A stretch of DNA of 64,000 nucleotides from Minisyncoccota bacterium (GTDB taxonomy: Bacteria > Patescibacteriota > Minisyncoccia > Phycocordibacterales > UBA9973), in assembly GCA_041659785.1 (NCBI GenBank), contig JBAZXO010000002.1, positions 55,479-119,478 on the forward strand. The letters run 5' to 3'. A model generated the notes under the pieces. It ran no database searches, was not told where the DNA came from, and saw nothing but the letters and a program-made list of their open reading frames with translations. This document shows, piece after piece, positions 4,839-59,339 of the stretch. A program made the position numbers and the translations under genes. The stretch's first letter is position 1; each line of letters opens with the position of its first letter.

Positions 4839-4909
4839 TCGGGCCGCTGGGAATTGAACCCAGTCTAAATGCTCCCAAAGCACTTGTACTACCGGTATAC
4901 TACGGCCCG
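4839..4909 (-). tRNA. tRNA-Pro (anticodon TGG), C1-G72 start, 3-bp D-stem, no encoded CCA
   Basis: Acceptor CGGGCCG/CGGCCCG, anticodon loop TTTGGGA, T-arm CTGGGTTCAATTCCCAG. It lies 4 nt from tRNA-Gly. Confidence 0.75.
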
Positions 4910-4965
4910 CCTTCGCTAAAGCTTCGGCGGGCAAGCCCGCTTCAACTTAAAGCTAACACAGCATA

Positions 4966-5394
4966 TCATAAAATAATATCACTTACCACTTTTATTTTTG
5001 CTTTTTTGTTTTTTATATCAATAAAGACTACCAATAAATCCACTTGCCATTCTTTTTCATCTGGGACTTTTTCAGACAAAAGATAGGTTTGAATTGTCCG
5101 TGACAGACGTTTAAGCTTCCAGGGATGCATGTTGTCTTCAGGTCTATGTTGGTATCGCTCATCAGAATCATTATAAGATTTCGGTATAAAAGTATTTAAT
5201 GTTTCACGCGAAACACTTTTTACTTCTACAAAGTATATTTTATTAGCTTTTTCGGCGACTATATCTATTTCACCCCATTTCTTGGTGTAATTTCGATCTA
5301 ATACTGAAAAACCATGTTTCACAAGGAACTTTACAGCTATATTTTCTCCAATTTCTCCTATTTTTTGTGTGTTTGATGTAAAAACCTTAGGCAT
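4966..5394 (-). CDS. yraN: YraN-family (UPF0102) endonuclease
   Basis: GEIGENIAVKFLVKHGFSVLDRNYTKKWGEIDIVA is the typical YraN N-terminus. Confidence 0.75.
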   Translation of the reverse strand: MPKVFTSNTQKIGEIGENIAVKFLVKHGFSVLDRNYTKKWGEIDIVAEKANKIYFVEVKSVSRETLNTFIPKSYNDSDERYQHRPEDNMHPWKLKRLSRTIQTYLLSEKVPDEKEWQVDLLVVFIDIKNKKAKIKVVSDIIL

Positions 5395-5620
5395 ATAATA
5401 AGTTTCACATGGAACATAGTCTAATTGTGTTTCACGTGAAACGTTTAGCTAAATTTTTGTGTCTTTTATAAAAATATCCTTATTTTATAAGGTTTTATTG
5501 ACAAAAATAGACTTAAAAGACAACTTTTTTTACTGTCCTTTATAAACAGTACCCACATAGTTATCCACATATTTCAATAAAATCCTTGTGTTGCAAAGCT
5601 TTACTAAAGGACAGATTTTG

Positions 5621-5931: not shown

Positions 5932-7659
5932 GTGGAACAAAACACTAAAAATTTAATAGCAAAAATACCCAAAGAGGTTTCACATGTAACAGATACATTA
6001 GAAAAGTACGGCTTTGAAGTGTACCTTGTTGGTGGATGTGTCCGTGATCTTTTAATGGGCAAAGAGCCAAAAGACTGGGACATTACAACTAACGCTAAAC
6101 CAGAACAAATTATTCCTCTTTTTAAAAAAACTGTTTATGAAAATACTTTTGGAACGGTAGGTGTGGTTCTCCCCTTTAATAAGGGGGAGTGGCCAAAGGT
6201 CGAGGGGGTGGTTTCACATGTAACAGACCCCTCCTCAATCCTCCCCTTAGCAGGGGAGGAAAATATGATTATTGAGGTTACGCCATACAGAATTGAGGCA
6301 AAATATAGTGATTTTAGGCATCCTGACGAGGTAAAATTCAGTGATAAGCTAGAAGATGACCTTAAAAGGCGTGATTTTACAGTTAACGCCCTGGCCTTAA
6401 GTCCCTCCAATTCGGCGGGCAAGCCTAAAGGACAACTGGTGGATTTGTTTGATGGTATAAAGGACATTAAAGACAAGACGTTAAAAGCAGTAGGGAACCC
6501 AGATGACCGTTTTGCAGAAGATGCGCTTCGAATGTTGCGTGCTGTCCGTTTCTCTTGCCAATTAAATTTTTCTGTGTCGTATGAAACTACAGAAAGTATT
6601 TTAAAAAATTCAGAGTTAATAAAAAAAATATCTGAAGAAAGAATTCGTGATGAGTTTGTAAAAATAATTATGTCAGAAAATCCTGCGAGCGGAATTGTGA
6701 TGTTACAAAAATTTAATTTGTTAAAAAATATTATTCCTGAATTAGAAGAGGGTATTGGTTGTGAACAATTAGGTGAACATATTTATGATGTGTGGGATCA
6801 TTTACTTCATGCACTCTCACATGCCGCAGACAAGAATTGGCCTTTAGAAATAAGGCTCGCAGCACTGTTCCATGATATCGGAAAGCCGAGGGCAAGAAGG
6901 TTAGCCGTACCTGATGCTTTTGCTCGGGATATCCTGGCAGGCCAACGTCACCACTCACAAAAGTATACAGGTTCGGCTAACCAAGAAGATTTCTCTGAGG
7001 CTTTTTCGAATGGTGACGTTGCGAAGCAGGACATTCCTGAGAAAAAGAACTCAGAGAAATCTTCAAAGAAAAAATATACTTTTTACGGTCATGAAGTTAT
7101 CGGCGCAAGGATGGCGAAAAAAATAATGGAGAGATTAAAATTTCCTAAAAAAGAAATTGATCTTGTGGAAAAACTCGTACGCAACCATATGTTTTTCTCA
7201 GACACTGAATTGATTACACTTTCTGCTGTTCGAAGAATTGTTGTGAAAGTTGGTAAAGAAAATATTTGGCCACTTATGAATGTCCGTGAGTGTGATAGAG
7301 TGGGGATGAATAAAAAAGAAGCACCCTATCGGCTTCGAAAATACTTCGCGATGATAGAAGAAGCTCTTCGTGACCCTATTTCTGTAGGACAACTAAAGAT
7401 TAATGGAGAATATATGATAAAAGAGCTTGGGATTACTCCTGGACCCAGAATGGGATGGATTTTAAATGCTTTATTGGAAGAAGTTTTAGACGCGCCAGAG
7501 AAGAATACCGTAAGTCATTTATCTGGATTGGTAAAATCATTAAATATGCTTGGTGATGCTGAGCTTAAAGTCCTCGGTTTGCGAGGAAAAGAAAAGAAAG
7601 AAGAGCTTGAAGAAGAAGAAGTCGCGAAACTTCACGAAAAGCATGGAGTGAGAAAGTAA
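5932..7659 (+). CDS. cca: CCA-adding enzyme / poly(A) polymerase family nucleotidyltransferase with HD domain; likely GTG start at 5932, just after tRNA-Arg
   Basis: YLVGGCVRDLLMGKEPKDWDITT head motif and an HD-domain region (LFHDIGKP). The track start at 5920 overlaps the tRNA 3' end. Confidence 0.8.
   Translation: MEQNTKNLIAKIPKEVSHVTDTLEKYGFEVYLVGGCVRDLLMGKEPKDWDITTNAKPEQIIPLFKKTVYENTFGTVGVVLPFNKGEWPKVEGVVSHVTDPSSILPLAGEENMIIEVTPYRIEAKYSDFRHPDEVKFSDKLEDDLKRRDFTVNALALSPSNSAGKPKGQLVDLFDGIKDIKDKTLKAVGNPDDRFAEDALRMLRAVRFSCQLNFSVSYETTESILKNSELIKKISEERIRDEFVKIIMSENPASGIVMLQKFNLLKNIIPELEEGIGCEQLGEHIYDVWDHLLHALSHAADKNWPLEIRLAALFHDIGKPRARRLAVPDAFARDILAGQRHHSQKYTGSANQEDFSEAFSNGDVAKQDIPEKKNSEKSSKKKYTFYGHEVIGARMAKKIMERLKFPKKEIDLVEKLVRNHMFFSDTELITLSAVRRIVVKVGKENIWPLMNVRECDRVGMNKKEAPYRLRKYFAMIEEALRDPISVGQLKINGEYMIKELGITPGPRMGWILNALLEEVLDAPEKNTVSHLSGLVKSLNMLGDAELKVLGLRGKEKKEELEEEEVAKLHEKHGVRK
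6168..6263. repeat. GC-rich composite palindromic insertion inside cca, read in-frame; contains an 18-nt direct repeat of 5976..5993
   Basis: ctcccctttaataagggggag hairpin, then tggccaaaggtcgagggggtgg, then ggtttcacatgtaacaga (identical to 5976..5993), then cctcccc-ttagca-ggggagg hairpin. Related to the family-B elements at 30945 and 58931. Confidence 0.45.
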
Positions 7660-7751
7660 AAAACAAATCTAGCAAAATTTTATCAGGTCCTCGGTTCTCT
7701 GGGTCCCTGTCCCAGCCAGACCATGCTAAAATTTTCTAGATTTGTTTTTTT
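7658..7751. repeat. MITE-like palindromic element, family A (core caggtcctcgg...ccagcc; TIRs aaaaacaaatctagcaaaatttt / aaaattttctagatttgttttttt). Probably also the cca/TMEM175 terminator
   Basis: The inverted termini and GC core were read directly. Homologous copies lie at 29772 (inside comM) and 57507, with a fragment at 40395. Confidence 0.5.
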
Positions 7752-9275: not shown

Positions 9276-10232
9276 TTATCCTTTGTTGTGAAACTTTTTG
9301 TGTATATCACGCAAATGTTTGTCTGTGACGTGAGTATAGATTTGAGTAGTCGCGATATTGGAGTGCCCGAGCATAGCCTGGACGGAACGTATATCTGCAC
9401 CATTCGAGAGTAGGTCAGTAGCGAAAACATGACGAATGACGTGTGGGGTTACTTTTTTTGAGATGCCGGCTATTGTAGCGTATCTTTTTACAATTCTTTC
9501 CACTGAACGGCGAGTGAGGCCATCATCCTCTTGAGAATTTTTTTCTTTCTTTTTATCTAAATTTTTCTTTGACGATACTTCATCATTTATTTTTACAAAA
9601 AGAGCATCTGACATATTTTTCCTTATAGCCAAATAATTTTTTACTGCCTTTTTTGCTTCATCAGACAGGAAAACCACGCGTACCTTACCACCCTTGCCAC
9701 GTATAGAAAATTCATCTAAATGCAAATCAAGGTCATTTCGTAAAGAACAAAGTTCTGATACACGTAGGCCAGTAGAAAAAAGCATTTCTAAAATTGCTTT
9801 GTCTCTGTATTTCCTCTCTAAATTTTTTTCGTTATTGGGTGCATCTAGAAGTCTCTTGAGTTCTTCTTGGGAAATAACGTCAATTTGTCTTTCTCCAATT
9901 TTTGCTAGCTCTATGTGGTCAGAGGGGAGAGATGTAATATTTCTTCTTGTTAAAAATTTAAGAAAAGTTCGAAGAGCTATTAAATAGTAATTTTGAGTTT
10001 TCTTTTTTATCGTTTCCCCAGTGGCTCTGTTGTTGCCAGTGGTCTGGCGATTGAGCCAAATACGAAAATCTCGAACTTTTGTATCTGTGATATCTTTTGG
10101 ATCAGTGATTTTTGTTTGGTTAAAAAAGACAGTCAGATAATGATCATAGTTTTCGACTGTTCTTATAGCTCGCCCTTTCTCTATTTCGATATATTCCAAA
10201 AATTGAGTTTTAAGTTGTTGCATGGAAGCCAT
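9276..10232 (-). CDS. Tyrosine recombinase (XerC/XerD-like)
   Basis: C-terminal HVIRHVFATDLLSNGADIRSVQAMLGHSNIATTQIYTHV carries the R..H..R..Y catalytic motif. N-terminal SAM-like domain. Confidence 0.8.
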   Translation of the reverse strand: MASMQQLKTQFLEYIEIEKGRAIRTVENYDHYLTVFFNQTKITDPKDITDTKVRDFRIWLNRQTTGNNRATGETIKKKTQNYYLIALRTFLKFLTRRNITSLPSDHIELAKIGERQIDVISQEELKRLLDAPNNEKNLERKYRDKAILEMLFSTGLRVSELCSLRNDLDLHLDEFSIRGKGGKVRVVFLSDEAKKAVKNYLAIRKNMSDALFVKINDEVSSKKNLDKKKEKNSQEDDGLTRRSVERIVKRYATIAGISKKVTPHVIRHVFATDLLSNGADIRSVQAMLGHSNIATTQIYTHVTDKHLRDIHKKFHNKG

Positions 10233-10723: not shown

Positions 10724-11233
10724 ATGACAGTAATAAAACATAAAGAACAGAGGGTTGGGGTTTTTATTGATACTCAAAATTTATACCATTCAGCTCGCAA
10801 CTTATATCAGGCACGAGTTAACTTCGGTGCGGTTTTGAAAGATGCAGTTGCTGGGCGTAAGCTCGTGCGAGCAGTCGCTTATGTCATCACTACTGAAGCA
10901 GGGGATGAGAAAAACTTTTTTGAAGCACTTTCTAAACTTGGGATTGAAACTAAAACAAAAGATTTACAAATATTTGCTGGAGGTGCCAAGAAAGCAGATT
11001 GGGATGTAGGGCTCGCAGTCGATGCTATTAAAATGTCACCACGCTTAGACTCTGTGGTTATCGTTTCTGGGGACGGAGACTTTATTCCCCTTGTAGAATA
11101 TTTACAAACCATAGGAGTGCAAGTCGAAGTCGTATCATTTGGTAAATCAACTTCTGGTAAACTTCGCGAAGCGGTAGATGACTTCGTAGACTTATCTGAG
11201 AATCCAAGAAAATATTTAATGACTACAAAATAG
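10724..11233 (+). CDS. NYN/LabA-like (DUF88) domain protein
   Basis: VGVFIDTQNLYHSAR...VIVSGDGDFIPLVEYLQTIGVQVEVV. The ATG at 10724 lies directly behind a TATAAT (10712-10717), suggesting a leaderless transcript; the track start is 10685. Confidence 0.7.
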   Translation: MTVIKHKEQRVGVFIDTQNLYHSARNLYQARVNFGAVLKDAVAGRKLVRAVAYVITTEAGDEKNFFEALSKLGIETKTKDLQIFAGGAKKADWDVGLAVDAIKMSPRLDSVVIVSGDGDFIPLVEYLQTIGVQVEVVSFGKSTSGKLREAVDDFVDLSENPRKYLMTTK

Positions 11234-12293: not shown

Positions 12294-14429
12294 ATGCAAA
12301 AGAAAGAATATAGTGTAGAAATTGGAGGAAAAAAATTAACCGCCATTTTTACTGATTTAGCAGATCAAGCACAAGGTAGTGTGATGCTCAAATATGGTGA
12401 GACGATTGTACTCGCTACTGCTTGTATGTCTCACGACAAACAAGCTGGTTTAGGATTTTTTAATTTAACTGTGGACTATGGAGAAAAGTTTTATGCTACG
12501 GGGAAAATTTTAGGTTCTCAATATGTCAGGAGAGAAGGTAAAGCATCTACTGAAGCAGTTTTAGCAAGTAGAGTTATTGACCGAACTATTCGTCCACTTT
12601 TCGACCAACACTTGCGACATGCTGTGCAAGTTATCGTGACGGTCATCGCTTGTGATGACAACGATCCAGCGATGCTTGCGGTGAATGCAGCCTCTCTAGC
12701 TCTTGTCGTTTCAAATATTCCATGGAGGGGGCCAATCGGTTGTGTGCGTATCGGAAAATATGATGATGAAACTTTAAAGATAAATCCATCTACGGTTTTG
12801 AGAGCAGAAGAGTATCCATATAAATTTGACCTAACAGTGTGCGGAAGAGAGGGACATGTGAACATGATCGAAGCTGCCGCTAGACAAGTAAAAGAAGAAG
12901 AACTCGTAGAAGCTCTTGAGAGAGCCAGTGTTGAGATTTCTAAATTAGAAGAATTCCAGAAAAATATTGCAAAAGAAATCGGTAAAGAAAAAAGAATTAT
13001 TCCTAAAGAAGTTATAAATCCTGAGGCTGTAACTTTGTTTAAAGAAAACATTTTACCAAAAATGGAAGAAGCTATTTTCGCCACCGCCACGGCGGGGCAA
13101 GCAGTAGCAGGTAAAGCAAAAATTGATGCATTACATACAGAGTGGAATAATTTAGTGAAAGAAAAATTCCCTGATAACGCAGACTATGAGCTCGAAGATG
13201 ACTTGTTTGATAATACTGAAAATGAAATGTTGCATGAGAAAGCAATCAAAGAAGGGAAACGTGCGGACGGACGAGCGATGGATGAAGTACGTGATCTTTA
13301 TGCGCAGGCTGGAGGATTGTCAAAAATATTACACGGCTCTGGAATTTTTTATCGTGGAGGGACACATGTCTTCTCTGCATTGACTCTAGGTGGGCCTGGA
13401 GACAAGCAAGCTGTAAACGGAATGGACGTGACTTCCGAAAGAAGATTTATGCATCACTATAATTTTCCTCCCTTTTCTGCTGGAGAAGCTGGACGTTATG
13501 GTTTTACAAATCGTCGAGAGGTAGGACACGGAGCGCTTGCCGAAAAGGCACTAGCAATGGTATTACCCACTCCTTTAGAATTCCCTTATACGATTCGAAT
13601 AGTCTCTGAATCTATGGCATCCAATGGATCAACTTCCCAAGCTTCTATTTGTGCTTCAACTTTGGCATTGATGGATGGTGGAGTACCAATCAAAGCTCCT
13701 GTCGCTGGTATCGCGATGGGCTTAATGTTTGAGAGTGAAAATAACTATAAAATTTTAACTGATATCCAAGGGCCTGAAGATCACCATGGTGATATGGATT
13801 TCAAGGTTGCTGGGACGAGGAATGGTGTCACCGCTATTCAACTCGACGTGAAAGTAGACGGTGTGCCAATAAAAATATTAGCGGAAGCAATGAAACAATC
13901 TAGGAAAGCACACTTCCATATTTTGGATGTAATGGAAAAAGAAATTTCTGCACCGCGTCCTAATATATCTGCTAATGCACCAAAGATTTTGATTATAAAA
14001 ATTAATCCAGACAAGATCGGCATGGTCATCGGTGGCGGTGGAAAAACTATTAAAGATATTAAAGAGAGATCCGGTGCAGAAATAACTATCGAAGACGATG
14101 GAACAGTATATCTAACTGGTAAAGATGGATCTGCCGAAAAAGCTAGAGAGATAGTTGAAGAAATGACTCATGAATTTAAAGTTGGGGAAGTATTGAAAGG
14201 GGAAGTGGTAAAGCTTGCAGATTTTGGAGTCTTTGTCGCCCTTAATCCTTTTACTGATGGTATGGTGCATATTTCTGAGATGGCCCCATTTCGTGTTGAA
14301 CGAGTTAGCGATATAATAAAGGAAGGTACTATCGTACCAGTGAAAATCATCAGTGTTGATGCAGAGAGGGGCAAGATTGGTTTATCTATTAAAGAAGCTG
14401 ATAAAGATTTCTTTAAACCAAAGGCATAA
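12294..14429 (+). CDS. pnp: Polynucleotide phosphorylase
   Basis: 711 aa with two RNase PH domains, KH and S1 (GMVHISEMAPFRVERVSDIIKEG). Confidence 0.95.
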   Translation: MQKKEYSVEIGGKKLTAIFTDLADQAQGSVMLKYGETIVLATACMSHDKQAGLGFFNLTVDYGEKFYATGKILGSQYVRREGKASTEAVLASRVIDRTIRPLFDQHLRHAVQVIVTVIACDDNDPAMLAVNAASLALVVSNIPWRGPIGCVRIGKYDDETLKINPSTVLRAEEYPYKFDLTVCGREGHVNMIEAAARQVKEEELVEALERASVEISKLEEFQKNIAKEIGKEKRIIPKEVINPEAVTLFKENILPKMEEAIFATATAGQAVAGKAKIDALHTEWNNLVKEKFPDNADYELEDDLFDNTENEMLHEKAIKEGKRADGRAMDEVRDLYAQAGGLSKILHGSGIFYRGGTHVFSALTLGGPGDKQAVNGMDVTSERRFMHHYNFPPFSAGEAGRYGFTNRREVGHGALAEKALAMVLPTPLEFPYTIRIVSESMASNGSTSQASICASTLALMDGGVPIKAPVAGIAMGLMFESENNYKILTDIQGPEDHHGDMDFKVAGTRNGVTAIQLDVKVDGVPIKILAEAMKQSRKAHFHILDVMEKEISAPRPNISANAPKILIIKINPDKIGMVIGGGGKTIKDIKERSGAEITIEDDGTVYLTGKDGSAEKAREIVEEMTHEFKVGEVLKGEVVKLADFGVFVALNPFTDGMVHISEMAPFRVERVSDIIKEGTIVPVKIISVDAERGKIGLSIKEADKDFFKPKA

Positions 14430-22567: not shown

Positions 22568-22608
22568 CTGAGGGGGGGGGGATACTGCGTATCCGCCCCC
22601 TCTTTTTA
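22568..22608 (+). terminator. Hairpin holding a G10 homopolymer (gagggggggggggata-ctgcg-tatccgccccctc) followed by TCTTTTT; terminator/attenuator-like
   Basis: Inverted repeat and T-run read directly. Ten consecutive G at 22572..22581. Confidence 0.45.
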
Positions 22609-29257: not shown

Positions 29258-30877
29258 ATGAGTTTTGCAAAAGTCTACTCTGCACAAGTTAATTTACTTA
29301 AGGGTTCTATCGTGACAATTGAAGTGGACCTCTCGCGAGGTCTTCATTCTTTTAGTTTGGTTGGTCTGCCTGATAAAGCGGTGGATGAGTCTAAAGACAG
29401 AGTAAGCGGAGCGATAAAGAATTCTGGTTTTAAGTCACCGAAAGCAAAAAATCAAAAGATAATCGTCTCACTTTCACCAGCTGATTTAAAAAAAGAAGGA
29501 CCATTTTTTGATCTTGGGATTGCACTATCTTATATGCTCGCCGCAGGAGATGTGAAGTTTGATTCAGAGAAAAAGATTTTCTTAGGAGAACTTGGGCTCG
29601 ATGGCACTCTGCGTAGAATTCGTGGAGCATTGCCTCTCGCCCAAGAAGCGAAGAGGCTTGGCTTCGAAGAAATATATTTACCAAAAGAGAATGCAGTCGA
29701 GGCGGCACTCGTGGAGGGCGTCACAATTTTCGGAGCAAATAGTTTAAAAGAAGTTGTTGAGCACCTCAGTTTCCGTGAGTCTAGCAAAATTTCTTCGGGT
29801 CCTCGGTCCTCCGGGGCCCCACACCCCGGCCAGACCACTCAGAAATTTTCTAGTCTCACGGAAACCGGGAAGCTTATTTTGTCTCAGCCACAAACTAAAA
29901 TAAATTATAAAAAAGAAGTTTCACGCACAGACTTTTCTGATATTCGTGGACAAGAAGGAGCAAAACGAGGACTGGAGATTGCAGCAGCTGGCGGGCACAA
30001 TATTGCTATGTACGGTCCGCCAGGCACAGGCAAGACGATGCTTGCACGAGCATTCTCACAACTTCTGCCAGATTTAAATATTGAAGAAGTGTTAGAGATT
30101 ACAGGTATCCATTCTGTGGCGGGGAGTACAATGGGGGAGCTCGTTTGTTTTGCTCCATTTCGAGCGCCACACCACACGTCGTCTTATGTCTCTATCATTG
30201 GTGGAGGAACATACCCAAAGCCAGGGGAAGTGACCCTCGCGCATCGCGGGGTTTTATTTTTAGACGAATTTCCAGAATTTGAAAAGAGAGTTATCGAATC
30301 TTTGCGTCAGCCCCTCGAAGACAACATCGTCTCGATCTCTCGCGCTAAAGGCACAGCCGTATTTCCTTCAAATTTTATTTTAGTAGCAGCGATGAACCCT
30401 TGCCCTTGCGGGAATGCGACTTCAAAACAAAAAGCCTGCATTTGCAAACCTTCAGACCTGGATAGATATAAAAGAAAACTTTCTGGTCCAATAATTGACC
30501 GTATTGATCTATGGGTTTCCGTAGGGAATGTGGATTATAAAAAGTTGGGAGGGGAGGGCAACGGAGAGAAGAGTGAGAAGATAAAAGAGAGAGTTACAAA
30601 AGCGCGAGAAATTCAAAAAGATAGATTTAAAAAATTTGGAAAGAGCATAATTACAAATAGCGAAATGAATGTGAAAGATTTAGGAGCGATGATAAACCTC
30701 TCTGGCAAGGTGCGAGACTTATTGGATGACAGCGCAGAGCGTTTATCACTGTCGGCTCGTGCGTATCATCGAGTTATTAAAATAGCTCAAACTATCGCAG
30801 ATCTGGAATCTTCTCCCAATATCGAAGAACACCATATTCTAGAAGCCATACAATATAGGCCTAAAGTTAATAATTAA
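29258..30877 (+). CDS. comM: YifB/ComM Mg-chelatase-like AAA+ ATPase
   Basis: N-terminal Lon-like domain. Walker A MYGPPGTGKTML. C-terminal ChlI-type domain. Confidence 0.9.
   Translation: MSFAKVYSAQVNLLKGSIVTIEVDLSRGLHSFSLVGLPDKAVDESKDRVSGAIKNSGFKSPKAKNQKIIVSLSPADLKKEGPFFDLGIALSYMLAAGDVKFDSEKKIFLGELGLDGTLRRIRGALPLAQEAKRLGFEEIYLPKENAVEAALVEGVTIFGANSLKEVVEHLSFRESSKISSGPRSSGAPHPGQTTQKFSSLTETGKLILSQPQTKINYKKEVSRTDFSDIRGQEGAKRGLEIAAAGGHNIAMYGPPGTGKTMLARAFSQLLPDLNIEEVLEITGIHSVAGSTMGELVCFAPFRAPHHTSSYVSIIGGGTYPKPGEVTLAHRGVLFLDEFPEFEKRVIESLRQPLEDNIVSISRAKGTAVFPSNFILVAAMNPCPCGNATSKQKACICKPSDLDRYKRKLSGPIIDRIDLWVSVGNVDYKKLGGEGNGEKSEKIKERVTKAREIQKDRFKKFGKSIITNSEMNVKDLGAMINLSGKVRDLLDDSAERLSLSARAYHRVIKIAQTIADLESSPNIEEHHILEAIQYRPKVNN
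29772..29862. repeat. Family-A palindromic element inserted in-frame inside comM (encodes ...FRESSKISSGPRSSGAPHPGQTTQKFSSLTETG...)
   Basis: TIRs tccgtgagtctagcaaaatttct and agaaattttctagtctcacgga. Core cgggtcctcggtcctccggggccccacaccccggccagacc aligns with the 7658 copy. Confidence 0.5.
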
Positions 30878-30896
30878 GTTATCCACAGGTAGTGTG

Positions 30897-30926
30897 TTGA
30901 CAGGTGAACGCTCGTTCACTTATACT
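30897..30926 (+). promoter_or_regulatory. lexA-operon promoter (TTGACA-17-TATACT) with a Cheo-type LexA box tGAACgctcGTTCa (30905..30918) in the spacer
   Basis: Read directly; the GAAC-N4-GTTC palindrome is perfect. Confidence 0.6.
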
Positions 30927-30944
30927 ATTTAGGTAGGTCGTTTA

Positions 30945-31005
30945 AATACCCCTACCCAGCCTCCCCCTATGTAGGGGGAGGTGCCAAAGGCGGAGGGGGA
31001 AAATT
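30945..31005. repeat. Family-B GC palindromic element (aatacccc...cctccccctatgtagggggagg...tgccaaaggcggagggggaaaatt) in the 5' UTR of the lexA operon
   Basis: The 22-nt perfect hairpin at 30960..30981 is identical to 58957..58978. Confidence 0.5.
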
Positions 31006-31027
31006 ATTAAAGTAAATTAAAAATTTT

Positions 31028-31234
31028 ATGTCACAATCACAATATTTAAAAATGTTAGAAAGGGAGATACAAAAGATCAATAAGAAAATTGACTTAAAGA
31101 TTTTAGAAGGAGCAAAGTATGCCAAAGAGGCTAGAGAGCATAAATTACTCTTGAGGAAAGTTCGTTATCATACTAGAAGGAGTTTCTTTAGTAGATTTTT
31201 TCCCACATTTTTTAACTCCAGACTTCAATTCTAA
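31028..31234 (+). CDS. Small hypothetical protein (68 aa, C-terminal hydrophobic/aromatic tail) co-transcribed with lexA
   Basis: Its stop abuts the lexA start (31234/31235). It is the first gene behind the LexA-box promoter. Confidence 0.45.
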   Translation: MSQSQYLKMLEREIQKINKKIDLKILEGAKYAKEAREHKLLLRKVRYHTRRSFFSRFFPTFFNSRLQF

Positions 31235-31801
31235 ATGAAAAATGTTTATCAAACAAAACTAGAATCTTTTTACGGCGACAACAAAAGGATGCCTACGTAT
31301 TCTGAGATGATGAAGCTCTTTGGTTTTAAATCAAAGAATGCCGTTTTTCGCGTGGTGGAGAAATTAATAGAAGCTGGACTCGTAGCAAAAGACCACTTGG
31401 GTAGACTTGTCCCAGCTGAAACTTTTGGAGAAGTACCAATGCTTGGTTTTGTAACTGCGGGGTTTCCAGCTACCGTAGAAGAAGAGTTAGCAGACACTAT
31501 AAAATTAGACGATCTTTTAATAAAAAATAAATCTTTAACATATATGCTCGAAGTCGATGGTGACTCTATGATCGATGCTCACATCGAGCGGGGAGACATG
31601 GTGCTCGTAGAGAAGGCAACTGTCGCGAAAGATGGGCAGATAGTCATAGCTGAAGTAGATGGAGAGTTTACGATGAAATATTTTCGTAAAGATGGAGCAA
31701 AGGTCTGGCTCGAACCAGCTAATAAAAAATATAAACCAATCTATCCAGAACACTCTTTAAATATAAATGCAGTTTTAAAAGCAGTAATAAGAAAATATTA
31801 A
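31235..31801 (+). CDS. lexA: LexA repressor
   Basis: wHTH N-terminus. Ala-Gly cleavage site (VTAGFPA). S24 peptidase motifs VDGDSM...GDMVLV...GEFTMKYF. Confidence 0.85.
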   Translation: MKNVYQTKLESFYGDNKRMPTYSEMMKLFGFKSKNAVFRVVEKLIEAGLVAKDHLGRLVPAETFGEVPMLGFVTAGFPATVEEELADTIKLDDLLIKNKSLTYMLEVDGDSMIDAHIERGDMVLVEKATVAKDGQIVIAEVDGEFTMKYFRKDGAKVWLEPANKKYKPIYPEHSLNINAVLKAVIRKY

Positions 31802-40360: not shown

Positions 40361-40394
40361 ATTATTTTACTTCTGAATGGTCTGGGGATTTTTT

Positions 40395-40408
40395 CCGAGG
40401 ACCTGAAG
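40395..40408. repeat. Fragment of the family-A element (ccgaggacctgaag, reverse orientation) between hppA and nusA
   Basis: It is the reverse complement of the cttcaggtcctcgg/cttcgggtcctcgg cores at 7686 and 29795. Confidence 0.3.
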
Positions 40409-40466
40409 AAAAAAAGATAATTTATTTGGCCTACGTTAAATTACTAATATTAATAATAAATTTACT

Positions 40467-41651
40467 TTATTTTTCCTCAATTATTTCAACTTTTTCACCG
40501 TCTGTACTTGCTACTTCTTTATCATCACCTTTGATATCTATTCTCCAGCCTGTAAGTTTCGCGGCGAGACGGACATTTTGTCCACCTTTACCAATAGCAA
40601 GAGAAAGCTGATCATTTGCTACTTCTACTGTTGCTTTGTGTTCTTTCTCATCTATATCGATAGAAATAACTTTCGCTGGGGAAAGAGCATTAGAAACAAA
40701 TTGTGTAGGATTTTCAGACCAAGGAATTATATCAATTTTTTCTCCAGAAAGTTCTGTGGTAATAGTATTTACTCGAGTACCTTTTTGTCCGACGCATGAG
40801 CCGACAGCGTCTATATGCTCATCGTTTGAATAAACTGCGATTTTAGAACGCGCACCTGCTTCACGAGCAACTGATTTTATTTCCACTACTCCATTTTCTA
40901 TTTCTGGTGCTTCCATTGCGAAAAGTTTCTCTATAAATTTAGGATGGGTACGAGAAAGGCGCAAATTTATACCTCTTGGTGTATCTTCTACGCTGTAGAG
41001 ATAAGCTCGGACTCTGCGGCCACGTTCCCAATATTCTCCGGGAATTTGTTCTTCGGCAGGGAGGATACCAGTAGCTCTGTTGAAATCAACGTAGACATTT
41101 CCACGTTCTACTTTTTGTACGATACCAGAAATTATTTCTCCTTCCTTTGTACCATATTCGTCTATGATGGATGTGCGTTCTGCTTCACGAATTTTCTGAA
41201 CAATGACTTGCTTGGCTGTTTGAGCAGCGATACGTCCGTAATCATCTTTCGCTTCCAATGGGAAAATAATCTCATCATTGAGTTCTACTCCCTTTTTTAT
41301 TTTTTTTGCATCTTCGAGGAGAATATGGTGTTCGCTATTGAAGTGTACGCGTTCGTCACCTTCTGTTTTTAAAGAATATTCAACCTCATCCCCCGCCTTC
41401 CCCTGAGAGGGTTGGGGTGAGGTGTCCAAGATTGCAATACTTTCGTCGACTACAATTTTTACTTGGAAGAAATCTGTTTTACCAGTTTCCATGTCGAATT
41501 TAGCTCGAACGATTTGTCCTTTCTTGCCGTAATCTTTTTTATAAGCGGCGGCCATCGCTTGTTCTATCGCTTCTAGAATTTTTTCCTTTGGAATTTTTCT
41601 CTCTTCCTCTAACTGCTCGAGTGCTGATTTGAATGTTTTTATATCTAACAT
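40467..41651 (-). CDS. nusA: Transcription termination/antitermination factor NusA
   Basis: N-terminal domain, S1, and two KH domains (GxxG loops). Confidence 0.9.
   Translation of the reverse strand: MLDIKTFKSALEQLEEERKIPKEKILEAIEQAMAAAYKKDYGKKGQIVRAKFDMETGKTDFFQVKIVVDESIAILDTSPQPSQGKAGDEVEYSLKTEGDERVHFNSEHHILLEDAKKIKKGVELNDEIIFPLEAKDDYGRIAAQTAKQVIVQKIREAERTSIIDEYGTKEGEIISGIVQKVERGNVYVDFNRATGILPAEEQIPGEYWERGRRVRAYLYSVEDTPRGINLRLSRTHPKFIEKLFAMEAPEIENGVVEIKSVAREAGARSKIAVYSNDEHIDAVGSCVGQKGTRVNTITTELSGEKIDIIPWSENPTQFVSNALSPAKVISIDIDEKEHKATVEVANDQLSLAIGKGGQNVRLAAKLTGWRIDIKGDDKEVASTDGEKVEIIEEK
41383..41428. repeat. GC-rich near-palindromic insertion inside nusA (cctcatcccccgccttcccctgagagggttggggtgagg), read in-frame as LDTSPQPSQGKAGDE
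   Basis: Outer arms cctcatcccc / ggggtgagg. It is a GC island in an AT-rich gene. Confidence 0.35.
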
Positions 41652-57506: not shown

Positions 57507-57590
57507 GAAATTGAAATAAATCAAATTTTTTTTCGGGTCCTCGGAAAAAATCCGGAGATTAGCTCAAAAAATTTATTTATTTCAATTTCT
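57507..57590. repeat. Family-A palindromic element (TIRs agaaattgaaataaatcaaatttttttt and aaaaaatttatttatttcaatttct; core cgggtcctcggaaaaaatccggag) between the HIT gene and recJ
   Basis: Read directly. Its core start matches the comM and 7686 copies. Confidence 0.45.
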
Positions 57591-57623
57591 ATATTGTACT
57601 CCATTTATGCTAAAATTCAATTC

Positions 57624-59339
57624 ATGCAAAAGTATGGTGAATTATTGCGGACATTGTTAGAAAAAAGAGGCATTACTGATTCAGCACAGGCTGAGGTTTT
57701 TTTAAACCCCGACTACGAAAGAGATTTCAATAACCCATTCCTGATGAAGGATATGGAGCGTGCCTGTGTGCGTATATTTGAGGCCATAGAAGCAAAAGAA
57801 AAGATAGTTATCTATGCGGATTATGATTGTGATGGTATCCCCGGAGCTGTAATTTTAAATGACCTATTTAAATTATTAGAATACAAAAATTATGAGGTAT
57901 ATATACCCCAGAGAAACTCTGAGGGATATGGCCTAAATTTAGAAGCAATAGAACAATTTGCACAAAACGAAGTAAAGCTTTTAATAACCATTGACTTAGG
58001 CATCACCGCGGTAGCTGAAGTAGCTCAAGCAGAAGTTGATGGTATTGATGTCATAATTACTGACCACCACATTCCTCATGCAGTTTTACCTCGCGCTTAT
58101 GCTATTTTAAATCCTAAAGTAGATGACCCCGCCAAGGCCGGGGCAAGTTACCCAGAGAAAATGCTTTGTGGGGCAGGTGTTGCGTTCAAGCTTGCGCAAG
58201 GATTTATAAAAAAATACGGAGAGTATTTCAAAATAAAAGACGGGCAGGAAAAATGGATGCTCGACATGGCAGGGCTCGCCACACTTTCGGATATGGTCCC
58301 ACTAACTGGTGAGAACAGGGCGATGGTTTATTTCGGGATGAAAGTTTTGAGAAAATCTCCACGTCCAGGCTTACAGAAACTTCTTGCGAAAATGAAAATT
58401 GAGCAGAAATATTTATCTGAAGATGATGTTGGTTTTATGATAACCCCACGCTTAAATGCTGCTTCTCGTATGGATGACCCGATGCGAGCTTATGAACTTC
58501 TTTCTACAAATGATGAAAGAGAAGCTGGTGTCCTTGCAGATCATTTGTCGAAAATAAATGATGACAGGAAAACTATCGTGAAGAGTATTATGCGTGAAGT
58601 GAATAAAAAATTTGAAGAGAGAGAAATGAGAGAAGTAATAGTGATAGGGAATCCAAGCTGGCGAGTCGGTATTTTAGGATTAGTTGCGGGGAAAATATCT
58701 GATGAATACAAAAAACCCGTTTTCGTTTGGGGTAAAGATGAGAATGATTGCATCAAGGGTTCTTGTAGGAGTGATGGTTCAGTGTCTGTGGTAGAGCTAA
58801 TGACCGAAACGACTGAATCATTTATAGATTTCGGTGGGCATGAGCTTGCGGGCGGCTTTTCTGTACATAATGATAAGATTCATTTCTTGGAAGAGGCTTT
58901 ATCTCTTTCTTATAAAAAAATTACTACTTTAAAAAATACCCCCTCCACTGATGGCACCTCCCCCTATGTAGGGGGAGGACAGGTGGGGGTAAATTTTGAT
59001 ATAAAATTTACGCTAGATATGGTAAACATGAAAAATTGGCGAGAGATAGAGAAGCTAGCACCATTTGGTCTGGGAAATCCAAAACCAGTTTTTCTCTTTG
59101 ATAATGTAAAAATAGAAAAAATAAAAAAGTTTGGTAAAAATGGTTCAGGAGAGCATTTAGAAATTAAATTTTCAGATATGAACAATCATAAAGCTACTGC
59201 AATTTCCTTTTTCTCCAACCACGATTCCTTCGAAAAGACTTTATCTGAAGGTATTAATGTAAATTTGCTAGCCACCTTTGACTTATCGAGGTTCCGAGGT
59301 AGAGAAGAGCTAAGATTGAGGATTATTGGTATATGCTGA
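57624..59339 (+). CDS. recJ: Single-stranded-DNA-specific exonuclease RecJ
   Basis: DHH motifs (IYADYDCDGIPGA, ITDHH) and a DHHA1 domain. The ATG at 57624 is preferred; the track TTG start is 57594. Confidence 0.9.
   Translation: MQKYGELLRTLLEKRGITDSAQAEVFLNPDYERDFNNPFLMKDMERACVRIFEAIEAKEKIVIYADYDCDGIPGAVILNDLFKLLEYKNYEVYIPQRNSEGYGLNLEAIEQFAQNEVKLLITIDLGITAVAEVAQAEVDGIDVIITDHHIPHAVLPRAYAILNPKVDDPAKAGASYPEKMLCGAGVAFKLAQGFIKKYGEYFKIKDGQEKWMLDMAGLATLSDMVPLTGENRAMVYFGMKVLRKSPRPGLQKLLAKMKIEQKYLSEDDVGFMITPRLNAASRMDDPMRAYELLSTNDEREAGVLADHLSKINDDRKTIVKSIMREVNKKFEEREMREVIVIGNPSWRVGILGLVAGKISDEYKKPVFVWGKDENDCIKGSCRSDGSVSVVELMTETTESFIDFGGHELAGGFSVHNDKIHFLEEALSLSYKKITTLKNTPSTDGTSPYVGGGQVGVNFDIKFTLDMVNMKNWREIEKLAPFGLGNPKPVFLFDNVKIEKIKKFGKNGSGEHLEIKFSDMNNHKATAISFFSNHDSFEKTLSEGINVNLLATFDLSRFRGREELRLRIIGIC
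58931..58995. repeat. Family-B GC palindromic element inserted in-frame inside recJ (encodes KNTPSTDGTSPYVGGGQVGVNFD)
   Basis: The 22-nt hairpin at 58957..58978 equals 30960..30981. Flanks aaaaaatacccc and gggggtaaatttt mirror the lexA-UTR copy. Confidence 0.5.

Follow-up and report, generated by a model that had tools for sequence, protein, structure and literature searches.

A GC-rich palindromic repeat family dispersed at low copy number in Nomurabacteria/Paceibacterota genomes and probably tolerated in protein loops

Two copies of a short GC-rich palindromic repeat, here designated family B, were characterized in a 64,000-nucleotide stretch of a Minisyncoccota bacterium genome (the window), one in the leader of lexA and the other in frame within recJ. 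The repeat is not restricted to the stretch in which it was noticed: a census extending beyond the window found it in 29 assemblies, one of them that of the window itself, with 81 copies distributed over 35 distinct sites. We regard family B as probably being an RPE-, MITE-, or REP-like palindromic repeat family of the Nomurabacteria/Paceibacterota that is dispersed at low copy number and tolerated in protein loops. Filled and empty alleles coexist among close relatives, with element-bearing patches of approximately 100 nt exchanged by homologous recombination. No paper describing family B was found in the literature, in line with the suggestion in a preliminary description of this DNA that the phenomenon had not been reported for genomes of this kind.

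Anatomy and predicted fold of the family B unit

The 22-nt perfect hairpin CCTCCCCCTATGTAGGGGGAGG, which the preliminary description had reported as common to both loci, was recovered as exact matches at positions 30960-30981 and 58957-58978, with none expected by chance (0 in 100 shuffles). Each hairpin forms the center of a 55-nt unit, copy 1 at 30947..31001 on the + strand (nhmmer E = 2e-17; covariance model, 79 bits) and copy 2 at 58937..58991 on the - strand (nhmmer E = 3e-16; covariance model, 73.4 bits). The flanks had also been described as similar, and the similarity is real, but the best alignment between the two loci is inverted (64 nt, 77%). The unit is arranged as TACCCC(T/C)ACC-NNN-(CCTCCCCC TAYRTA GGGGGAGG)-linker or small hairpin-GGAGGGGGTA, and across all variants from the assemblies it is a GC-rich nested imperfect palindrome of 48 to 69 bp. 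Its outer stem is formed by TACCCCYACC paired with GGAGGGGGTA, with a conserved A.A mismatch, and its inner stem by eight invariant base pairs (CCTCCCCC/GGGGGAGG) closed by the cap TAYRTA; a third hairpin is optional and varies in length and sequence while its hairpin form is kept. The inverted-repeat ends pair in 96.7% of cells, and TA is present at both ends of nearly all copies. The stretch GGGGGAGG-N-GGAGGGGG was considered as one that may form a triplex or G-quadruplex.

Copy 1, in which the outer stem consists of TACCCCTACC and GGAGGGGGAA and the mini hairpin is GCC-AAA-GGC, is predicted to fold into a three-way junction (-33.1 kcal/mol, z = -3.15). A covariation test on 30 distinct 55-nt copies, an input too conserved to give a signal, found 98.5% of cells paired and double changes at only one pair, with shuffles reaching the score in 106 of 500 cases. 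As there is so little covariation, the fold draws its support from sequence conservation and the variability of the third hairpin, not from covariation statistics. Rfam returned only tRNAs across the whole window at the gathering threshold, and at E ≤ 10 the matches over the element were noise, the best of them (E-value 0.26) falling far below gathering.

Four of the six reading frames are free of stop codons in 66 of the 81 copies, so that a copy that keeps the frame would add a Pro/Gly-rich coil of 16 to 22 residues to its host protein. Read in four frames, the same DNA gives the unrelated peptides YPYPASPYVGGGAKGGGG, TPSASGTSPYVGGGQVGV, PLPSLPLYRGRRKEGV, and PPPFSSPYVGGGWVGV.

The copy within recJ

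Copy 2 lies antisense to recJ, an intact gene at 57594..59339 (+) encoding DHH, DHHA1, and RecJ_OB domains (Pfam), with a 100% identical homologue (P0001) annotated as RecJ. As had been read from the letters, the copy is translated in frame (...KNTPSTDGTSPYVGGGQVGVNFD...) within an intact ORF of 581 codons. Its translation, (N)TPSTDGTSPYVGGGQVGV, covers approximately residues 448 to 466 and falls between the end of the DHHA1 domain (residue 434) and the start of the OB domain (residue 469). The insert is modeled by AF2 as a coil with pLDDT below 50 in this interdomain linker (moderate model, mean pLDDT 73), and solved (PDB) homologues are shorter at the insert sites of both RecJ and Cca and carry neither insert, consistent with the surface loops for which a structural check had been proposed.

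Among 120 RecJ homologues at 75 to 100% identity, approximately 27 had an intact SP[YH]VGG signature and approximately 15 (15/120) were flagged as degenerate or frameshifted at the insert, the remainder being empty. Filled, empty, and degenerate states were interspersed in UPGMA clustering. The nearest backbone to the RecJ of the window (P0008, 7% distance) is empty, and empty alleles exist at 87% identity. Sliding identity and alignment delimited a patch at 58906..59010 (+) over which identity to the otherwise closest allele, which is empty (L094), drops to 10 to 31%; filled alleles of more distant genomes match the same patch at 63 to 98%, with a peak of 96 to 98% over the element. Judged from these comparisons, the recJ patch of approximately 100 nt that carries the element has been swapped in by recombination.

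The copy in the lexA leader

Copy 1 lies in the leader of a transcript that comprises a small ORF and lexA, and it starts approximately 20 nt past a LexA-box promoter. The placement originally given, between this promoter and the first ORF, holds: a sigma-70-type promoter, TTGACA-18-TATACT, is found at 30897..30926 (+) with a LexA (Cheo-type) box, GAACGCTCGTTC, at 30906-30917, and the element is followed by a conserved 68-codon ORF with no Pfam match (31028-31234, +) that directly abuts lexA (31235-31801, +; Peptidase_S24). Of 80 related lexA loci, 68 retained the promoter and its box, and most of the other 12 had truncated upstream sequence. In these 80 loci, which were sampled via LexA and not via the hairpin, nine intact elements and no degenerate ones were identified. 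Many of the leaders were empty or held other hairpin families, with at least eight unrelated hairpins at this leader. In L095, a relative at 97% identity, the leader is entirely different. Where the element occupies a lexA leader, the LexA box lies 34 to 41 nt upstream of it, and the element has a single orientation in the window and 15 further genomes. No LexA box was found within 200 nt of copies elsewhere, save one at 121 nt (L029), and on this basis a link of the other copies to the SOS regulon was rejected. A possible TA duplication was seen when the empty leader of L121 (GTCGG-TA-TTTAG) was compared with the filled leaders of L154 and L137 (GTCGGG-TA[...]TA-AAATT), which do not form a clean pair.

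Distribution of family B

Besides the window's assembly, the carriers are 28 assemblies of Nomurabacteria/Paceibacterota with one to six exact-hairpin copies each, and the copy number is estimated at roughly 5 to 10 per genome, far short of the numbers usual for REP or MITE families. Nineteen of the 35 sites are common to two or more copies, and neither the recJ nor the lexA copy is present in the window's closest relatives. The element occupies leaders, intergenic spacers, and, in frame, the loops or linkers of housekeeping proteins. In-frame copies are found in at least 12 distinct housekeeping genes, all intact, and the possibility raised earlier that the hosts might be pseudogenes was not borne out. 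RecJ was checked with Pfam, and the other hosts were named from ORF translations (PolA, UvrC, RecG, FtsK, PurH, KsgA, Fmt, LepA, IleS, and MurI); in most of these genes, the ORF extends for hundreds of codons to either side of the insert. Eight coding sites hold the element in the sense and six in the antisense orientation, and the peptide SPYVGGG recurs in many proteins.

A test for enrichment of copies with lengths divisible by three at coding sites had been proposed. The length of the element is not a multiple of three; instead, it is the variants at any one coding site that differ by 12 nt, as all six heterogeneous coding-site groups mixed only 55- and 67-nt variants. All four heterogeneous noncoding groups included length differences that are not multiples of three.

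Matches in Thermomicrobiales and Dehalococcoidia genomes (GC, 0.61 to 0.73) reproduced the hairpin together with a portion of the left arm, with neither the right arm nor the TA ends, and were set aside as a separate REP-like family, possibly a coincidence. The exact hairpin was absent from IMG/VR, and a looser arm pattern used in the phage search returned unrelated matches and one B-like copy in a 174-kb contig. No transposase or RAYT (PF01797-type) was present among the 57 window ORFs scanned, in which the only recombinase was a XerC/D-type integrase (9276-10232).

Constraint on the nucleotide sequence

Within genes, third-codon-position identity between species was 0.875 in the element arms versus 0.476 in the flanks, for copies picked by their perfect central hairpin, which favors well-preserved ones, and with the scored arms lying outside the search pattern. 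The boundary of conservation at the element edge was sharp. This difference points to constraint on the nucleotide sequence of family B itself, beside flanks that are saturated at synonymous positions, and a reading as a simple decaying junk repeat was therefore abandoned. Copies differed at 4.16 positions per 25 nt within genomes and 3.99 between genomes, with 2.97 for copies at the same site; as copies from one genome were no more alike than those from different genomes, concerted evolution within genomes was rejected as the cause of conservation. Recent co-conversion was also rejected as a general cause, being seen at recJ only and absent in polA, uvrC, and recG. Such strong conservation at old orthologous sites is unlike what simple selfish DNA would be expected to show and would fit a host function equally well.

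Mobility and alternative explanations

If family B is a tolerated repeat of the MITE or REP type, as we think probable, its first arrival at each new site would have been an insertion catalyzed in trans by an enzyme recognizing the folded strand, and the sequence constraint would stem from recognition by that enzyme or from a host factor binding the same fold. The TA at both ends may represent a target duplication. The recJ element would then be passenger DNA tolerated as a surface linker, and the lexA-leader element would add a stable stem-loop near the mRNA 5' end. The proposal of mobile repeats that tolerate insertion into proteins thus stands with regard to dispersal, in-frame placement, and presence/absence polymorphism, but the window ORFs and the filled and empty alleles compared revealed neither a transposition event nor a transposase nor a clear target-site duplication, and the mobility documented is instead the replacement of patches of approximately 100 nt by recombination. 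A TA duplication would make the net insertion 53 or 65 nt for the 55- and 67-nt classes, precisely those found in frame, and is a poor fit.

The same observations could be accounted for by a host-maintained cis-acting site, in which a cellular protein (for example, of DNA repair, recombination, or chromosome organization) recognizes the cruciform or folded strand and the site is spread by host selection and not by selfish transposition; with almost no spacer DNA in these genomes, it would be lodged in whatever positions tolerate it, protein loops among them. We judge this explanation possible but rather unlikely. It draws on the nucleotide constraint with a sharp boundary at old orthologous sites, stems that are invariant in sequence instead of covarying, a low and stable copy number, the absence of degenerate copies among the nine in lexA leaders that were found without reference to the hairpin, and a precedent within the window, where parS-like sites lie in frame in a cca loop. 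Many of the hosts (recJ, polA, uvrC, recG, ftsK, and the lexA leader) function in DNA metabolism, which may amount to an excess of such genes. However, close relatives manage without the element at recJ and lexA, the copies of some 15 RecJ alleles have decayed or are frameshifted, unrelated hairpin families occupy the same permissive sites in other lineages, the element can run either way with respect to its host gene (sense at 8 coding sites, antisense at 6), and no candidate binding protein is known. We give slightly less credence again to family B being a conserved cis-acting site that is active in a folded form (cruciform or three-way junction), embedded in frame in loops and leaders as the parS-like cca sites are, and read by a dedicated protein whose link to DNA repair or recombination would follow from the hosts just named. 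On that view, filled alleles might even be spread by a homing-like bias during recombination.

It is improbable that the copy in the lexA leader serves the SOS operon as a dedicated regulatory RNA structure, a leader hairpin controlling mRNA stability or translation, with the recJ copy being incidental: its constant distance from the LexA box, its single orientation in the window and 15 other genomes, and its very stable fold would suit such a role, but it occupies just 9 of the 80 lexA loci, the 97%-identical L095 has another leader, at least eight unrelated hairpins use the leader in other lineages, copies occur inside ORFs in both orientations and, except in L029, without a nearby LexA box, and there is no Rfam match. 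Selection on the peptide and not on the DNA, as a Pro/Gly-rich module conferring some new property on its host proteins, might explain why SPYVGGG recurs and why inserts lie in exposed linkers; with synonymous positions conserved within the element and many copies noncoding, this is already contradicted, and the use of four frames encoding unrelated peptides also makes it very improbable. Almost no probability attaches to the two window copies being chance GC-rich hairpins or intrinsic terminators of no common origin, a reading that is contradicted and was rejected. GC-rich hairpins are frequent in the window, but no matches were expected in shuffles, the two copies are similar over 64 nt, 55 of which are the element proper, and the 81 copies in 29 assemblies have identical ends; for a terminator, there is no T-run after the hairpin, and one copy lies mid-ORF in recJ. 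A terminator scan of 30800-31300 did not call the element.

Relation to known repeat families

Selfish palindromes carried in frame within genes appear in textbooks mainly as a peculiarity of Rickettsia, whose palindromic elements (RPEs) were reportedly described by Ogata et al. in 2000 and are summarized in PMC10969869. As with RPEs, family B elements are dispersed palindromes of a reduced genome, often inserted in frame into mutually unrelated housekeeping genes that survive the insertion and gain a peptide at an exposed position, with several families coexisting and no element-encoded transposase. RPEs are about 150 bp long (PMC10969869), compared with 48 to 69 bp for family B, and their hosts are Alphaproteobacteria and not Patescibacteria; the likeness drawn here to the ten RPE families on record is one of features. 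Unlike RPEs, family B elements are GC-rich against an AT-rich genomic background, form a predicted three-way junction, are low in copy number, and at orthologous sites are strongly conserved in nucleotide sequence between species.

The Neisseria Correia elements and derivatives of IS630/Tc1-mariner are examples of MITEs whose insertion duplicates a TA. Family B has MITE-like inverted-repeat ends (TACCCC...GGGGTA) with TA on both sides, no coding capacity, and a dispersed distribution, but it is two to five times shorter and low in copy number, and its TA duplication is only putative and misfits the in-frame 55- and 67-nt copies. We know of no parent IS with ends matching those of family B. Similarly to the REP/REPIN (RAYT) system, it consists of short imperfect palindromes in which a conserved mismatch gives polarity, the folded single strand is likely the recognized form, and copies persist long at orthologous positions with their sequence conserved. 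REPs, however, are extragenic, whereas many family B copies lie inside ORFs, and family B lacks a tetranucleotide of the GTAG type at its 5' end, is accompanied by no gene for a RAYT (a Y1 HUH transposase) in the window ORFs scanned, and numbers tens of copies rather than hundreds. Yeast mitochondrial GC clusters and "byp" elements are also GC-rich palindromic mobile inserts within coding genes of AT-rich compact genomes; their hosts are organelles and not bacteria, and byp elements are skipped by the ribosome, whereas the frame rule (55 versus 67 nt per site) and the lack of stop codons argue that the family B insert is translated.

These findings extend a Rickettsia-type phenomenon, apparently undescribed for Nomurabacteria, to the candidate phyla radiation (CPR), where what stands out is a much smaller and sharply defined unit, several coexisting families, and hot-spot sites. 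They bear on loop acquisition by proteins in extremely reduced genomes, on the extent of recombination among uncultured CPR lineages, and on the handling of CPR proteins by gene callers and aligners. Strong conservation beside synonymous-saturated flanks is unexpected for junk DNA and raises the question of which protein recognizes the fold.

Palindromic blocks in cca and nusA

The cca block, listed in the preliminary description as a degenerate relative, scored weakly against family B (E = 0.025 and 0.27) and is related to it through a sister subfamily, B2. One partial B2 copy, at 6169..6209 (+; nhmmer E = 0.025; 12.9 bits), has the hairpin CTCCCC-TTTAATAA-GGGGGAG, the mini hairpin GGCC-AAA-GGTC, and the right arm GAGGGGGT and lacks the left arm; a second, at 6227..6259 (+; nhmmer E = 0.27; 16 bits, E about 0.09), has the left arm ACCCCTCC, the junction, and the hairpin CCTCCCC-TTAGCA-GGGGAGG and lacks the right arm. 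The two are separated by a parS-like 16-mer. As the L175 genome carries a full B2 element of family B architecture at the same cca loop (nhmmer E = 1.7e-6), the window block is taken to be two partial B2 copies around the parS-like site. The parS-like sites sit in frame within this same loop.

The nusA block (41383..41423, -) had likewise been grouped with the hairpins in recJ and the lexA leader. It was rejected as family B, as its scores were not significant (nhmmer E = 6.4; covariance model, 13.4 bits, E about 0.4) and it matched a different nested-palindrome family, D (ACCTCACCCCAACCCTCTCC...CGGGGGATGAGGT), of which it is an internally deleted member read in frame within the N-terminal domain of NusA (TSPQPSQGKAGDEV). 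Another supposed relative, the G10 hairpin (22568), was rejected, with no match at E ≤ 10 to the HMM or the covariance model. The permissive sites (the cca loop, the nusA loop, and the lexA leader) hold different combinations of modules according to lineage.

The family B element and its two copies in the window

A GC-rich hairpin repeated at two loci with similar flanks had been noted in the preliminary description, and the repeat was confirmed. The 22-nt sequence CCTCCCCCTATGTAGGGGGAGG is present exactly at 30960-30981 and 58957-58978, with no occurrence in dinucleotide-preserving shuffles, and the likeness of the two loci extends far past the hairpin, the best alignment being inverted and covering 64 nt at 77% identity. 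Both are among the few GC-rich islands of the window, which has a G+C content of 36%. Unit boundaries were set using a profile built on related copies (nhmmer) together with a covariance model, placing one copy of the element, designated family B, in the lexA leader at 30947-31001 on the plus strand (E = 2e-17; 79 bits) and the other in recJ at 58937-58991 on the minus strand (E = 3e-16; 73 bits). The recJ host ORF is intact, with 581 codons and the three expected domains (DHH, DHHA1, and RecJ_OB), and the copy is, as had been proposed, translated in frame as ...KNTPSTDGTSPYVGGGQVGVNFD....

GTDB representatives (one genome per species) were scanned for CCTCCCCCTAYRTAGGGGGAGG, identifying 93 stretches, 79 of which are in low-GC contigs labeled Nomurabacteria, Paceibacterota, Minisyncoccia, or Patescibacteria. 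Odd labels among the carriers include some "Saccharibacteria" (third-party assemblies) and one 3-kb contig in a Syntrophales bin; the flanks are identical in kind across all low-GC family B stretches, whatever the contig label. The unit reads TACCCC(T/C)ACC-NNN-[CCTCCCCC-TAYRTA-GGGGGAGG]-X-GGAGGGGGTA, where X is a 5-nt linker, AGAAA or AGTAA (class of ~50 nt), a mini hairpin, TGCC-AAA-GGC (55 nt), or a longer hairpin, TGCCCTGA-N5-TCGAAGGGC (67 nt). Both strands are predicted to fold, whether as RNA or as DNA, into a three-way junction (-33.1 kcal/mol as RNA; z = -3.15) composed of an outer stem in which an A.A (or T.T) mismatch is conserved, an invariant inner hairpin, and an optional third hairpin, which is kept while its length and sequence vary. 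Across 30 distinct 55-nt copies, 98.5% of cells were paired with compensatory change in one pair only; thus, the fold is based on conservation and the third arm, not on covariation statistics. The element has no match in Rfam.

Similar sequences were observed in other settings. The high-GC Thermomicrobiales genome SMAG_U3822 contains at least 10 copies of GGCCCCCACCCCCGGCC-CCTCCCCCTACGTAGGGGGAGG-GGAG (loci L015, L028, L036, L045, L053, L055, L068, L075, L079, and L086), in which the 22-nt hairpin of family B and a comparable left arm are present but the right arm and the TA ends are missing; the resemblance may be coincidental, or the repeat may be an unrelated REP family. A single B-like element (CCTCCCCC-13-nt loop-GGGGGAGG-TGCGCGTAGCGCG-GAGGGGGTA; nhmmer E = 5e-5) was located at 10959-11011 of L185, a 173,593-nt IMG/VR contig filed as viral that may be a misfiled fragment of a candidate phyla radiation (CPR) genome or a phage of these bacteria.

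Distribution and in-frame tolerance

The suggestion that the repeat has spread beyond one locus and tolerates insertion into proteins was borne out by 81 copies at 35 sites in 29 assemblies, with coding copies in at least 12 host genes. Nineteen of the 35 sites are common to two or more copies, from different genomes in 18 cases. Copies with the exact hairpin number one to six per assembly (29 assemblies), and since only ~4 extra copies were recovered when 562 kb surrounding the known ones was searched with the covariance model, we estimate ~5 to 10 copies per genome. Coding copies occur in the genes for RecJ, DNA polymerase I, UvrC, RecG, FtsK, PurH, KsgA, Fmt, LepA, IleS, MurI, an oxidoreductase, and a small secreted protein (names read off ORF translations, RecJ alone being Pfam based), and in most of these genes hundreds of codons are open on either side of the insert. 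Orientation relative to the host gene is mixed (eight sense and six antisense coding sites). As a raw count, 6 of the ~15 identified host loci (recJ, polA, uvrC, recG, ftsK, and the lexA leader) relate to DNA replication, repair, or recombination.

Four of the six reading frames are free of stops in 66 of the 81 copies, and four peptides recur: YPYPASPYVGGGAKGGGG, TPSASGTSPYVGGGQVGV, PLPSLPLYRGRRKEGV, and PPPFSSPYVGGGWVGV. At any single coding site the length variants were 55 and 67 nt only, 12 nt apart (6/6 heterogeneous groups), whereas at noncoding sites variants of 48 to 67 nt were intermixed and differed by nonmultiples of three (4/4 heterogeneous groups), as predicted if the coding copies are translated. 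Structure modeling of RecJ, proposed in the preliminary description, was performed with AlphaFold2 (mean pLDDT of 73); the insert is predicted to be an interdomain coil of low confidence (pLDDT of <50) that follows the final helix of DHHA1 and precedes the OB domain. At the positions of the inserts, solved structures of RecJ and of CCA-adding enzymes are shorter. Elsewhere in recJ, a GC-rich palindromic block at 58124-58157 (VDDPAKAGASYPEK) is also in frame; this segment has low AlphaFold2 confidence and is five residues longer than solved RecJ.

Exchange at recJ and in the lexA leader

Among the 120 closest RecJ homologues (75 to 100% identity), the insert signature is intact in ~27 and decayed or frameshifted in 15 (for example, SPLARGRMGGG), the rest being empty. 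These states are interspersed when proteins are clustered with the insert region left out, and the nearest backbone to that of the window, the homologue P0008 (7% distance), is empty. Window recJ shares 80 to 94% DNA identity with this empty allele (locus L094) everywhere but 58906-59010, where identity falls to 10 to 31% and that to filled alleles of remoter genomes rises to 63 to 98%, peaking at 96 to 98% over the element. A patch of ~100 nt, comprising the element and 20 to 30 nt per side, has therefore been swapped into recJ through recombination. Genes for ComEC and for a type IV pilus-like ATPase and platform protein are present in the window, making DNA uptake followed by recombination a plausible route.

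The lexA leader is likewise subject to exchange. As previously described, its copy lies between a LexA-box promoter and the first ORF, starting 20 nt past the -10 box of TTGACA-18-TATACT (30897-30926), within which is a Cheo-type LexA box, GAACGCTCGTTC (30906-30917). A conserved 68-codon ORF (31028-31234) follows and abuts lexA (31235-31801). The related locus L095 is ~97% identical on both sides of the leader, yet its leader is wholly different and lacks the element. Of 80 lexA loci sampled without a hairpin criterion, nine had intact elements, identically positioned and oriented, and decayed copies were absent; the remainder were empty or carried at least eight other hairpin families.

The leader (window 30927-31027; loci L095 to L174) is a hot spot, different lineages carrying hairpins or palindromes of at least eight unrelated families, examples being GACCAAGTCGGGTC, CCGCCTTCGCTAAAGCTTCGGCGG, the AT-rich CCCTGTTAAAT..., GCTAATCAGCTAG..., and, in L165, the separate nested-palindrome family D. 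A short (A/G)GTCG motif ~10 to 20 nt past the -10 box is retained in most leaders. The 68-codon ORF begins MSQSQYLKMLEREIQKINKK... and has no Pfam match; its start region, ATGTCACAA.CACAATATTTAAAAATG, is kept in most related loci where visible. Directly after comM, L095 (~900-930) has a 28-nt hairpin, TTTACGAAGG-TCTGT-CCTTCGTAAA, that is absent from the window (30870), another small palindrome indel between relatives whose contigs are 97% identical.

Nucleotide-level constraint and relationship to known repeats

For eight groups of coding sites, pairwise third-codon-position identity was 0.875 in the element arms versus 0.476 in the flanks (180 nt per side, 960 columns), with the arms scored lying outside the search pattern and the copies picked by a perfect central hairpin, which favors well-preserved ones. 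The lexA set, chosen independently of the hairpin, agrees with this constraint. The boundary is sharp, as flank third-position identity, 0.58 over the nearest 15 nt, was 0.44 to 0.52 farther out, and the near-element rise was clear in recJ alone (0.79 and 0.62), with none in polA, uvrC, or recG. Homogenization within genomes was rejected as the cause of conservation, as copies from the same genome (4.16 differences per 25 nt) were no closer than those from different genomes (3.99); copies at the same site across genomes differed by 2.97. Taken with the variable spacing of the right arm, the constraint indicates that it is the folded strand that counts. The reader of this fold may be a mobilizing enzyme or a host factor; that a host function maintains family B we consider less likely.

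Family B, which exchanges alleles through recombination, is tolerated in frame, and is constrained at the nucleotide level, fits a palindromic repeat that is mobile in evolution and tolerated in protein loops. Rickettsia palindromic elements (RPEs) are the nearest analogy, although family B is two to three times shorter. It resembles MITEs in its inverted ends and the TA on both sides, but no clear target duplication was seen and no parent element is known; as no transposase was found within the window either, its mode of insertion is inferred. With REPs and REPINs it shares an imperfect palindrome, a mismatch conferring polarity, and long persistence at a site, but it is not extragenic. Family B is therefore outside all three classes as defined. 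A full-text literature search returned no account of such repeats for the CPR, Parcubacteria, Patescibacteria, or Nomurabacteria.

Proposed relatives and other repeats

Relatives of the hairpin had also been proposed in cca and nusA and at 22568. The cca loop bounded by YENTFGTVGV and IIEVTPYR is hypervariable, ranging from ~4 to 55 residues in 120 homologues, and is assembled from recurrent modules. One of these, TPSLILPLTKGEMPKAEGV, corresponds in the DNA to a complete element with family B architecture and another hairpin, as in L175 (TACCCCCTCTTTGAT-TCTCCCCC-TTACCAA-GGGGGAGA-TGCCGAAGGCA-GAAGGGGTCA; nhmmer E = 1.7e-6). Window cca contains two partial copies of this sister subfamily, B2, at 6169-6209 and 6227-6259, one on each side of GGTTTCACATGTAACA, and the proposed kinship is thus partly confirmed; cca of a sister genome (L176) has none of the window's block. 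The nusA block (41383-41423) is instead an internally deleted member of family D, ACCTCACCCCAACCCTCTCC...GGAGAGGG...CGGGGGATGAGGT, for which 14 pattern matches were found among the retrieved loci plus the window, that at 10750 being a chance core match with no element. The nusA loop is also a hot spot, carrying family D, B-like or other modules, or nothing, depending on the genome. The G10 hairpin at 22568 had no link to family B detectable by HMM or covariance model.

Six matches to the parS-like 16-mer TGTTTCACGTGAAACA with one to three mismatches were found (0.42 expected): 5200-5215, 5401-5416, 5428-5443, 5976-5991, and 6210-6225, with a further one at 12427-12442. The cluster sits at the cumulative GC skew minimum (~5 to 6 kb), suggesting a putative centromere-like region beside the replication origin. 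Two sites are in frame within cca, and the VSRET/VSHET/VPCET modules, present at one to four per cca loop in related genomes, are the same palindrome. A GC-rich palindromic block at 4902-4933 (CCCGCCTTCGCTAAAGCTTCGGCGGG) adjoins tRNA-Pro, and its family also occurs in lexA leaders. The second repeat, family A (core GGGTCCTCGG), is found at 7668-7707, 29780-29844, 40381-40413, and 57526-57558; the copy at 29780-29844 is inside the ComM (Mg-chelatase-like) ORF, between the ChlI and ATPase domains, and the others are intergenic, one being directly upstream of recJ.
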